1,217 bases of DNA from Escherichia coli (GTDB lineage: Bacteria > Pseudomonadota > Gammaproteobacteria > Enterobacterales > Enterobacteriaceae), in the NCBI RefSeq assembly GCF_003334255.1, contig NZ_QOWU01000171.1; one strand, 5' to 3'. Within the stretch, counting starts at the first letter, position 1, and each line of letters opens with the position of its first letter. Below are positions 1 to 1,217 of the stretch, one piece after another. A model generated the notes under the pieces. That model saw only the letters and a program-made list of their open reading frames with translations. It had not been told where the DNA came from and did no database searches. The translations under genes were made by a program, and so were the position numbers.

Positions 1-893
1 GCGCTGATTATCTGCTGCAGCATTTCTGCCGGTTTTTCGCACGGATGTTTCCCGGGATAGTACTGCACCGGTTTATGCGTCCACACATCGGTGTACGGCA
101 CCTGCACCGTCACACCAAAATACCGCCGCAGATGCTTATATTCACTCTGCAGTTCCGTATACTGCCGGTTCAGTTCACTGTATGTGCTGACCAGTTGGTG
201 ATGTGGCTTTTCCAGTTCTCCGCGCTGATGCTTCTCTTCTGCCACCCGGGCAAACAGCGCCTGTAATTTCAGATAATCGCTTTCGTCCGGTAGCTGCCAC
301 TGGCTGGCACTGAACCAGTGCGACACCATGTTTTTCTTTCCTGTGGCATCAGCAATCTGTTTTGCCGTTATCCCCAGGGCAGCACGCGCATCACGAAAGT
401 AAGAAATCAGCGGGGCCATCACATGCTGTTTCAGTGCCCTGCCCTTCGCCTCATACCCGGCATCTTTCGGGCGATACGGCCCCTGATAATGTTCCGCGAA
501 CAGAATGCGCTCTGTGGCGGGGAAATATGCCCTCAGGCTTTCCTTGTTGCACCCGTTCCAGCGTCCGGACGGCTTCGCCCAGATAATATGGTTCAGCACA
601 TTGAAGCGTTCACGCATCATGATTTCAATGTCAGACGCCAGGCGATGGCCACAGAACAGGTAAAGACTTCCGGCAGGTTTCAGCACCCGCCAGAACTGCG
701 CCAGACACTGGTCCAGCCATTTCAGGTAATCATCGTCGCCCTTCCACTGGTTATCCCAGCCCTCAGGCTTCACTTTAAAGTACGGCGGGTCCGTGACTAT
801 CAGGTCAACAGAATTTTCGGGTAACGACCGGATAAATTCCAGGCAGTCGGCGTTGATTAACTCACAACTGGATATTTTTACAGTATTAAGCAT
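1..893 (-). CDS. DNA methyltransferase, beta-class (motif IV before motif I), probably N6-adenine-specific; 3' end truncated by the window edge (297 codons visible). Start ATG at 893..891.
   Basis: Reverse-strand translation from ATG 893..891 is open for 297 codons to position 1 with no stop, and an in-frame TGA lies two codons upstream of the ATG. Residues 30-38 read DLIVTDPPY (DPPY at 780..791), the catalytic motif IV of amino-MTases. Residues 283-288 read HPCEKP (30..47), matching the HPxxKP element that in YhdJ/M.RsrI-type enzymes sits just before the FxGxG AdoMet motif, which would lie beyond position 1. The three plus-strand ORFs in the track are antisense to this frame. Confidence 0.9.
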   Translation of the reverse strand, partial: MLNTVKISSCELINADCLEFIRSLPENSVDLIVTDPPYFKVKPEGWDNQWKGDDDYLKWLDQCLAQFWRVLKPAGSLYLFCGHRLASDIEIMMRERFNVLNHIIWAKPSGRWNGCNKESLRAYFPATERILFAEHYQGPYRPKDAGYEAKGRALKQHVMAPLISYFRDARAALGITAKQIADATGKKNMVSHWFSASQWQLPDESDYLKLQALFARVAEEKHQRGELEKPHHQLVSTYSELNRQYTELQSEYKHLRRYFGVTVQVPYTDVWTHKPVQYYPGKHPCEKPAEMLQQIIS

Positions 894-904
894 GGATCAT
901 TAAG

Positions 905-907
905 CCT
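905..907 (-). promoter_or_regulatory. Weak candidate Shine-Dalgarno (AGG) for the methyltransferase, with a long 11-nt spacer to the ATG.
   Basis: Minus-strand sequence upstream of the ATG is GACAGGCTTAATGATCC-ATG. The only purine-rich SD-like triplet is AGG at 907..905, and its spacing is longer than optimal. Confidence 0.25.
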
Positions 908-925
908 GTCTCTGATAGGCTCATT

Positions 926-944
926 CTGCTTTTGCGCAAAGCAG
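926..944. promoter_or_regulatory. Imperfect 19-bp palindrome CTGCTTT-TGCGC-AAAGCAG in the methyltransferase leader; candidate operator or RNA hairpin.
   Basis: Seen directly: 926..932 ctgcttt is the exact reverse complement of 938..944 aaagcag, with a 5-nt centre tgcgc. It lies 33-51 bp upstream of the methyltransferase start codon. No T-tract follows on either strand, so it is not a terminator. Confidence 0.3.
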
Positions 945-1029
945 TGGGCCTGAGGTTTGCTTGTGATCCGGACGCATGAGCAGATGGCTGGTGAGTGCCC
1001 CTAACACCCACCAGCCGCCCATTTACCAC

Positions 1030-1057
1030 AAATAAAAAAGCCTTCACTGCGGAAGGC
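1030..1057 (-). terminator. Rho-independent terminator on the minus strand: 6-bp stem GCCTTC (1057..1052), 6-nt loop, stem GAAGGC (1045..1040), then TTTTTTATTT (1039..1030).
   Basis: Seen directly: plus-strand 1030..1057 is aataaaaaag-ccttc-actgcg-gaaggc, whose reverse complement gives a perfect 6-bp GC-rich stem followed by six T then ATTT. The stop codon of the upstream gene (1046..1044) sits inside the loop and 3' stem. There is no T-tract on the plus strand, so it is unidirectional. Confidence 0.6.
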
Positions 1058-1217
1058 GTCTGTAACAACCGAACTGATAGTCTGCCAGACCCGCCATAAC
1101 CAGCTGGGTCAGTATTAACTGGCAGCGTTCGCGTGAAAGGTAAGTATTCTGCGCAATCTCCCCGACTGTCGCCGGTTCGGTGGCACTTAATTCATTAAAC
1201 ACCACTCTGGCGGTTTC
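1044..1217 (-). CDS. 3' end of an upstream gene (57 codons visible plus TGA stop at 1046..1044); hypothetical protein with a winged-helix/HTH-like C-terminus, possibly a phage replication or regulatory protein. 5' end lies outside the window.
   Basis: Reverse-strand frame entering at 1217 is open for 57 codons (ETARVVFNELSATEPATVGEIAQNTYLSRERCQLILTQLVMAGLADYQFGCYRRLPQ*). The composition looks protein-like, with an HTH-like pattern (TVGEIAQNTYLSRERCQLILTQLVMAGL). The stop is immediately followed by a hairpin plus T-tract terminator on the same strand. Function is inferred only from the motif pattern. Confidence 0.55.
   Translation of the reverse strand, partial: ETARVVFNELSATEPATVGEIAQNTYLSRERCQLILTQLVMAGLADYQFGCYRRLPQ

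Follow-up and report, generated by a model that had tools for sequence, protein, structure and literature searches.

The mom operon of bacteriophage Mu is under layered control by the C activator, the Com protein and an RNA hairpin. Promiscuous adenine methylases of Mu-like prophages lie behind Com homologues, and a Com-controlled modifying enzyme shields phage DNA from many restriction systems (PMC3299994). Control via alternative RNA structures has been described for the isrK-orf45-anrP locus of Gifsy-1, a Salmonella prophage in which this locus follows antQ (PMC4825925). Here, we compare with these systems a 1,217-nucleotide stretch of Escherichia coli DNA (contig NZ_QOWU01000171.1 of assembly GCF_003334255.1; hereafter termed the window, with position 1 as its first letter), all features of which lie on the minus strand. 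The window carries most of the gene for a small winged helix-turn-helix (wHTH) protein, a structured leader RNA and the first part of a DNA methyltransferase (MTase) gene. This arrangement represents a conserved module of Enterobacterales, in which the wHTH gene is followed by a ~155-nucleotide structured leader RNA, an M.EcoGII-type MTase gene and lysis genes. The module with its leader RNA is the interesting part of this DNA, more than the wHTH gene itself, which taken alone is an ordinary uncharacterised small phage wHTH; a literature search found no study of either the wHTH open reading frame (ORF) or the leader RNA.

M.EcoGII and its relatives are widely used as N6-methyladenine footprinting tools for chromatin and RNA; in nature, such enzymes probably provide phages with blanket protection from restriction. 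The gene encoding the enzyme is accompanied by two conserved elements, namely the gene for a tiny winged-helix protein and a leader RNA absent from Rfam, both of which stand at the very start of the late operon and, in Shiga toxin (Stx) phages, between Q and the stx genes. Within the window, the MTase segment (positions 1..893, minus strand) comprises the first 297 codons of a 352-residue, beta-class enzyme of the N6_N4_Mtase type, as judged by its translation and by homologues on which PF01555 is recorded. This protein is 95% identical to the enzyme of phage 1720a-02 (locus L002), which has been named as a close relative of M.EcoGII (PMC5778455). The window MTase is a member of the M.EcoGII family of non-specific adenine methylases, the non-specificity of this particular allele being predicted from its sequence. 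M.EcoGII is silent in the lysogen, deleterious once expressed and fully active alone in vitro (PMC5778455). The association of such an enzyme with the wHTH gene is a persistent one: the MTase gene lies downstream in 86 of the 95 loci first collected, with a spacer nearly always of 141-151 nucleotides, and in ~24 of 30 loci recovered by scanning species-representative genomes. The distance between the two genes across both sets of loci is 132-154 nucleotides, and the pairing is kept down to 42% wHTH identity. Compared as a whole, the window shares 99.3% identity with E. coli prophage DNA and 96% with Stx phages (1720a-02, for instance); matches to it occur in 2325 of 5426 complete E. coli genomes, at no more than seven places per genome.

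The wHTH ORF reads through positions 1044..1217 (minus strand), which supply 57 codons (codons 9-65) and a TGA stop; the visible translation, ETARVV...GCYRRLPQ*, includes the peptide singled out in a preliminary description of this DNA, where it was taken for the tail of a larger upstream gene. Extension of the frame in the closest E. coli locus does not bear this out: the ORF runs on for only eight codons (MLKQQDMT, 24 nucleotides past the right edge) to an ATG, where it starts, giving a full protein of 65 residues. No stop interrupts the frame just beyond position 1217. The window's exact allele, with 100% identity over residues 1-65, is a complete 65-residue ORF in phage PhiR5_1, and the same allele is found in IMG/VR contigs L009-L013; the RefSeq gene model in a 99.3%-identical E. 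coli locus is likewise 65 residues long. Homologues of 63-69 residues with the common start MLKQQDMTE occur in Escherichia, Shigella, Salmonella, Klebsiella, Kluyvera, Buttiauxella, Citrobacter, Erwinia, Proteus, Providencia, Morganella, Mangrovibacter, Mixta and Hafnia. Purifying selection acts on the ORF (pN 0.07 and pS 0.66 for nonsynonymous and synonymous differences from the Salmonella copy), its third codon position is the most variable, and its synonymous sites are saturated in most comparisons. Two other extents of the gene were considered and rejected. Annotated models of 77-106 residues begin at upstream GTG or TTG codons that lack conservation, in contrast to the ATG and MLKQQDMTE; judged by these aligned starts, models of 94-106 residues are not justified. 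Initiation at the second ATG (M7) is disfavoured because codons 1-6 vary in a codon-like manner and no usably spaced Shine-Dalgarno sequence precedes M7.

An AlphaFold2 model of the protein (m2f89e6bc4542, built from a 20-sequence alignment; predicted local distance difference test score 92.2) shows the elements of a winged helix in their canonical order, alpha1-beta1-alpha2-alpha3-beta2-beta3, helix 3 being followed by a beta-hairpin wing. On the minus strand, helix 1 (residues 9-16) corresponds to positions 1194..1217, helix 2 (residues 26-33) to 1143..1166, helix 3 (residues 37-49, RERCQLILTQLVM), which sits in the 'recognition helix' position, to 1095..1133, and the wing (residues 53-62, DYQFGCYRRL) to 1056..1085. 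Helix 3 is the most conserved stretch of the family, with L44, T45 and Q46 invariant; of these, remote homologues keep Q46 only. The wing carries a conserved G-x-Y together with basic residues. The best structural neighbours of the model are the DNA-binding domains of MarR, ArsR, BlaI and Lrs14 proteins, and the RNA-binding winged helices of SelB are also found among its neighbours. Thus, the resemblance to MarR/Rrf2-type domains that had been read from the peptide is upheld at the level of the fold.

The same cannot be said of membership in a named regulator family. A match to PHROG 331 (function unknown; E=2.4e-37 over residues 1-64) assigns the protein firmly to that phage family. The family is narrow, only 65 representatives reaching E<=1e-3 among 1.84 billion clustered proteins. 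Pfam returns sub-threshold matches only (TrmB, MarR_2, HTH_24, DprA_WH and Rrf2), the best being TrmB (PF01978; i-Evalue 1.3e-3, 19 bits), with MarR_2 at E=0.017 and Rrf2 at E=0.089; member by member, at E<=1e-3, DprA_WH is touched by 9 of 20 sequences and TrmB by 4 of 20. NCBIfam yields Lrs14 at E=0.074 only, and a sequence search of the PDB gives no significant match with the single sequence and no more than weak winged-helix matches with the profile. The earlier view that no family can be assigned therefore holds, and no match to a well-characterised family unrelated to DNA binding came to light. TrmB proteins have a C-terminal sugar-binding domain. The wHTH protein, for which TrmB is the NCBI name in many copies, has 65 residues, a sub-threshold profile match and no further domain, and the label 'TrmB family transcriptional regulator' is, as far as the sequence goes, not justified. 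Membership among MarR/Rrf2 regulators (~130-150 residues, with dimerisation helices and significant Pfam matches) was rejected on similar grounds. More generally, MarR, ArsR, BlaI, Lrs14 and TrmB factors span 90-350 residues and carry dimerisation or ligand domains, whereas the present family is a bare, mostly acidic domain of 65 residues that falls below every family threshold. Minimal winged helices (Z-alpha, RPA32C and Sul7s) bind Z-DNA/Z-RNA or proteins in unrelated biology and show no sequence relationship to it. A PADLOC scan gave a generic type II MTase match and a weak SWIM_XIII match for the wHTH, and membership in a defence system was rejected on this output.

Inspection of the flanking genes places the wHTH ORF first after the Q antiterminator gene and its pR'-tR' leader, and hence at the head of the late operon, in Stx-type (Stx-converting) and other lambdoid prophages. 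The gene order, as read in loci of E. coli, phage 1720a-02, Shigella SfV, Salmonella, Klebsiella, Morganella and Proteus/Providencia, is RusA/DUF968, Q, a tR'-type terminator, wHTH, MTase, then (in Stx phages) tRNA genes and stx, followed by holin and endolysin. Three different Q families (PF03589, PF06530/DUF1133 and PF06323) precede the wHTH ORF, indicating that it belongs with what follows rather than with Q. The lambdoid-prophage setting proposed in the preliminary description is thus confirmed, as is the presence of a terminator and a methyltransferase downstream; the former is an intrinsic-terminator-like hairpin (GCCTTC-loop-GAAGGC followed by TTTTTTATTT; 1030..1057, minus strand) that overlaps the wHTH stop codon and that, by alignment, has the canonical form in E. 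coli copies and a weaker one in those of Salmonella and Klebsiella. What does not survive is the layout of a replication module followed by an accessory gene, and with it the proposal that the peptide forms the C-terminal DNA-binding domain of a larger replication-module protein, such as an O-like initiator or a MarR/Rrf2-type factor. Fold resemblance is all that speaks for such a protein, which is refuted by the total length of 65 residues, by neighbours that comprise Q, tR' and the MTase in place of O-, P- or DnaC-like genes, and by the lack of iteron-like repeats in the window; we give it practically no credence. The nearest annotated candidate for a replication-module gene, an 'ATP-binding protein' adjacent to DUF1627 and DUF977 genes, lies ~7.5 kb away in the closest locus.

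Between tR' and the wHTH gene, ~40 nucleotides 5' of the ATG and downstream of the tR'-type terminator, lies an invariant block, CTTGCTG-N13-CAGAGTTAY-NN-GT, which falls just past the right edge of the window (L001 9273-9284, minus strand). The block is present as one copy per locus in >90 loci and travels with the wHTH gene; N15-like phages have variant forms of it ahead of their wHTH operon. Such a pattern could reflect a promoter, an operator or an element of the 5' untranslated region (UTR).

Conservation in the spacer between the wHTH and MTase genes exceeds that at synonymous sites of the two flanking genes. Covariation, a covariance model (R1) and a minimum free energy z-score of -3.3 together delineate a ~155-nucleotide structured leader RNA (891..1046, minus strand) that ends at the MTase AUG and comprises five helices, P1 (1021-1017/949-945), P2 (1016-1005/997-986), P3 (982-975/965-958), P4 (943-939/931-927) and P5 (922-917/907-902). 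In an unfitted MAFFT alignment of 30 sequences, 80.6% of the cells in this structure are paired, as compared to 31-46% when the partner columns are slid, and 12 pairs are changed on both sides versus 1-6 in controls, with the observed score reached by none of 500 shuffles. A covariance-model alignment that takes in Yersinia, Klebsiella, N15-like, Vibrio and Aeromonas phages shows both-sided changes in 30 of 36 pairs versus 6-11 in controls, although this alignment is fitted to the model and favours the structure. R1 scores the window at 141.7 bits, and frequent G-U pairs fit the sense strand only. Rfam 15 contains no relevant match at E<=1 in the window and none at E<=0.1 in four other representatives, and no known RNA family, tRNA or tmRNA was found to account for the element. 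The 891-1046 element is a candidate for a new leader RNA that regulates methylase genes of the M.EcoGII type in cis. A 33-residue ORF in the spacer (MGGWWVLGALTSHLLMRPDHKQTSGPLLCAKAE; 921-1022, minus strand) was rejected as the cause of this conservation, since it shrinks to 16 residues in Klebsiella and the invariant runs have no 3-base periodicity; it probably exists only as a side effect of the conserved RNA. In Salmonella, the same ORF is kept open by a -1/+1 pair of indels.

The conserved, folded nature of the wHTH protein, its constant proximity to a toxic late enzyme and its leader, and the invariant upstream block lead us to infer, tentatively and with less than even confidence, that the protein is a small regulator gating expression of the toxic late RNA-methylase unit. 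Because the enzyme is toxic and late (M.EcoGII is deleterious, and the Com systems offer precedents), tight control would be needed, and the wHTH protein would help to keep the promiscuous methylase off until late lytic growth. The protein would most likely bind nucleic acid in its own neighbourhood, with either the CTTGCTG-N13-CAGAGTTAY block (as DNA or 5'-UTR) or the structured leader RNA as a candidate target, and would thereby control access of transcription or translation to the RNA-methylase unit. Polymerase modified by Q at pR' would pass tR' and the terminator behind the wHTH gene in the lytic cycle only, and the logic of the whole would parallel the multi-layer control of Mu mom with unrelated parts. 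A more inclusive and more doubtful possibility is that the wHTH protein and the five-helix leader RNA constitute an undescribed joint control device for M.EcoGII-type phage methylases. In such a device, the RNA would represent a new cis-regulatory class, either protein-binding or ligand-sensing (for example, of S-adenosylmethionine or S-adenosylhomocysteine), that occludes the methylase start codon, whereas the wHTH would act as the trans-acting partner of the RNA or as a gatekeeper of transcription into it; the device would be common to lambdoid, N15-like and Vibrio/Aeromonas temperate phages.

Comparison with Mu com-mom and with Com-controlled methylases (Hin1523, Hia5 and Nma1821) reveals a common feature in the use of a toxic, broad-specificity, adenine-modifying enzyme that is made late only. 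The module further resembles com-mom in having a very small protein gene just upstream and RNA structure at the translation start of the enzyme, and distant versions of it, in phages Valp1 and phiARM81ld, carry a Com-like zinc finger. The parts, however, are different. Mu Com is a CxxC...CxxC zinc finger, whereas the protein here is a winged helix whose only two cysteines, C40 and C59, form no CxxC, leading us to reject membership in the four-cysteine Com family. The com gene overlaps that of its enzyme, whereas the two genes here stand ~150 nucleotides apart and, in E. coli, are separated by a terminator as well; the Mu RNA is a single hairpin, whereas the present element has five helices; and the beta-class MTase is unrelated to Mom. 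Any binding by the wHTH is putative. The C proteins of restriction-modification systems also derive from small regulator genes directly upstream of a DNA-modification gene, but these are Xre-type helix-turn-helix dimers that act on C-boxes to time a restriction enzyme, whereas the locus examined here has another fold and no endonuclease.

Winged helices can bind RNA hairpins, as in SelB, and the wHTH protein might by analogy be a Com-like translational regulator that binds the leader RNA (891-1046) and opens or closes the methylase initiation region. In keeping with this idea, the RNA that follows directly 3' of the wHTH gene has several covarying helices and extends to the MTase AUG, and this AUG lacks a good Shine-Dalgarno sequence when the RNA is present, whereas AAGGA appears in the RNA-less Proteus-group loci L091 and L092. 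The presence of SelB among the structural neighbours and the precedent of Com for promiscuous adenine-modifying enzymes (PMC3299994) point in the same direction. We nonetheless regard a Com-like role as improbable: the wHTH protein is acidic, RNA variants are not tracked by wHTH subfamilies, and the gene is kept where the RNA is absent (L091/L092) or truncated (PhiR5_1). Moreover, a wHTH and a Com-like zinc finger occur together in Valp1, indicating that the wHTH is not simply a replacement for Com.

More distant relatives of the module extend this comparison. Among phage records, 96 have MTase homologues and 57 have the wHTH. With R1, the RNA is recognised ahead of the MTase gene in Yersinia phage PY54, Klebsiella phage Kpn74, the N15-like E. 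coli phage YDC107_1, Vibrio phages VHML and Valp1 and, weakly, Aeromonas phage phiARM81ld. Remote wHTH homologues adjoin the RNA-MTase unit in the N15-like and Vibrio phages; PY54 ORF59 and YDC107_1 gp51 match PHROG 331 (E 1e-26 to 1e-32), and these two proteins combined with a 98-residue Valp1 ORF, which alone matched no PHROG family, align to the wHTH profile with an hhalign probability of 93.6%. In phiARM81ld (L126 2329-2544) and Valp1 (L130 1340-1465), the leader RNA and the MTase are separated by an ORF for a Com-like CxxC zinc finger, which matches PHROG 6417 ('translational regulator') and is annotated 'translational regulator Com-like'. These arrangements suggest that a single RNA-enzyme core has acquired different, non-homologous partners, the wHTH here and a Com zinc finger in other phages. 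The RNA element of Valp1 ends at the com start codon, not at that of the MTase.

Several observations weigh against a role for the wHTH protein in gating the RNA-methylase unit. In the N15-like and Vibrio phages, the order of the parts is permuted, with a late-promoter-like site and a tR'-type terminator lying between the wHTH gene and the RNA (PY54, L127 2260-2375; YDC107_1, L129 1276-1361; Valp1, L130 1060-1145). The invariant core of the protein is an unusually hydrophobic helix 3 (RCQLILTQLVMAGL) in which T45 and Q46 are the only polar invariants; most family members are acidic (isoelectric point 4.6-5.7, net charge -1 to -5), and dimerisation helices of the MarR/ArsR type are lacking. The cues conflict, in that the invariance of T45 and Q46 and the basic wing would favour contact with nucleic acid. 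The upstream block contains no promoter in a sigma-70 consensus scan, which, like the acidity and the missing dimerisation elements, speaks against simple DNA binding; the block also has no palindrome of fixed spacing. In addition, wHTH alleles have been swapped with respect to the RNA-MTase unit, with Spearman rho values of 0.47-0.51 between wHTH and either MTase or RNA as compared to 0.76 between RNA and MTase. Finally, the gene is retained without the RNA element in L091 and L092, and without the MTase in the plaque-forming phage PhiR5_1 and in L009-L013; because it persists in both situations, the role of the wHTH may not be MTase-specific. Together with the exchanged alleles and the presence of both wHTH and Com in Valp1, this persistence counts against a dedicated RNA or MTase partner. 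At the promoter/terminator site of Valp1, we also noted a weak Rfam isrJ match.

The exchange of alleles also bears on a second explanation, in which the wHTH is a protein-protein adaptor and no nucleic-acid binder. It would dock on the methylase, whether to inhibit it, chaperone it or serve as its targeting subunit, or on some other phage or host protein. Protein-docking winged helices are exemplified by RPA32C and by the N-terminal winged-helix dimerisation domains of O-methyltransferases. An adaptor of the methylase would be at variance with the swapping of alleles between MTase clades, in which subfamily 2 wHTH proteins (47% identical) stand beside MTases as similar as those of subfamily 1, and with the persistence of the wHTH gene when the MTase is deleted. 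M.EcoGII is, moreover, fully active alone in vitro (PMC5778455), and we consider this explanation unlikely.

The slot occupied by the wHTH gene is also that of isrK-orf45 in Gifsy-1, where a terminated short RNA from a post-Q promoter likewise precedes a small first ORF and, after it, a gene that must be kept off in the lysogen (PMC4825925). This correspondence raises the question of whether the wHTH gene could be an independent moron or leader ORF that has no tie to the methylase, acting elsewhere (in lysogeny or anti-defence) or serving as an upstream ORF in the manner of orf45. The experimental work on the isrK-orf45 leader (PMC4825925), the occurrence of the wHTH without the MTase in some viable phages and the mosaic nature of the module all fit such a view. 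However, orf45 encodes a non-conserved peptide of varying sequence that acts via translational coupling, whereas the wHTH has a conserved protein sequence, saturated synonymous sites and a confidently predicted fold, and the 150-nucleotide spacer and terminator before the MTase leave no room for coupling. The gene downstream in Gifsy-1 is an antirepressor rather than a methylase, and sequence homology between the two loci was not found. Co-location with the RNA-MTase unit survives rearrangement in lambdoid, N15-like and Vibrio phages, and an unconnected gene in this position has, in our estimate, only a small chance of being the correct account.

Other features of the locus accompany the module. 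Downstream of the MTase gene lie genes for tRNA-Ile and tRNA-Arg and, in Stx phages, stx as well (L001 7633-7794; L002 6945-7451); as a consequence of this order, every Q-dependent toxin transcript first crosses the wHTH gene with its terminator and then the leader RNA and MTase gene. The module was also seen in decayed form. In one species-representative locus (L104 3501-4646), residue 52 of the wHTH marks a fusion or truncation; in L112, a frameshifted wHTH stands beside an intact MTase; and in L107 and L122, the RNA element is present and tblastn detected no MTase. Directly 5' of the MTase start codon, a GATC (895..898, in the context TGATCYATG) recurs in 27 of the 30 spacers of a diverse set. 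The P3 loop (965-968) contains another GATC, or a GGTC, which could pair with the start-proximal GATC and occlude the start region. The corresponding long-range helix, GGAUCA:UGAUCC, which would hide the MTase start, was rejected because its covariation is too low to accept, although 92% of its cells are paired.

Inspection of P2 revealed a Chi sequence, GCTGGTGG, on the sense (late-transcript) strand at positions 1008..1015 (minus strand), where it forms the 5' arm of the helix in ~24 of 30 spacers. Where P2 is changed or absent, the spacer has a Chi at another place: in Hafnia at the stop codon, in L091 and L092 within a terminator stem. Chi accounts only in part for the conservation of the spacer, since stems that lack it maintain the hairpin by compensatory changes. 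In phages without the MTase (L009, L010, L012 and L013), homology to the window ends just 3' of the Chi-containing run, a breakpoint that suggests a recombination hotspot at a mosaic boundary. The observation on Chi also takes in locus L123.
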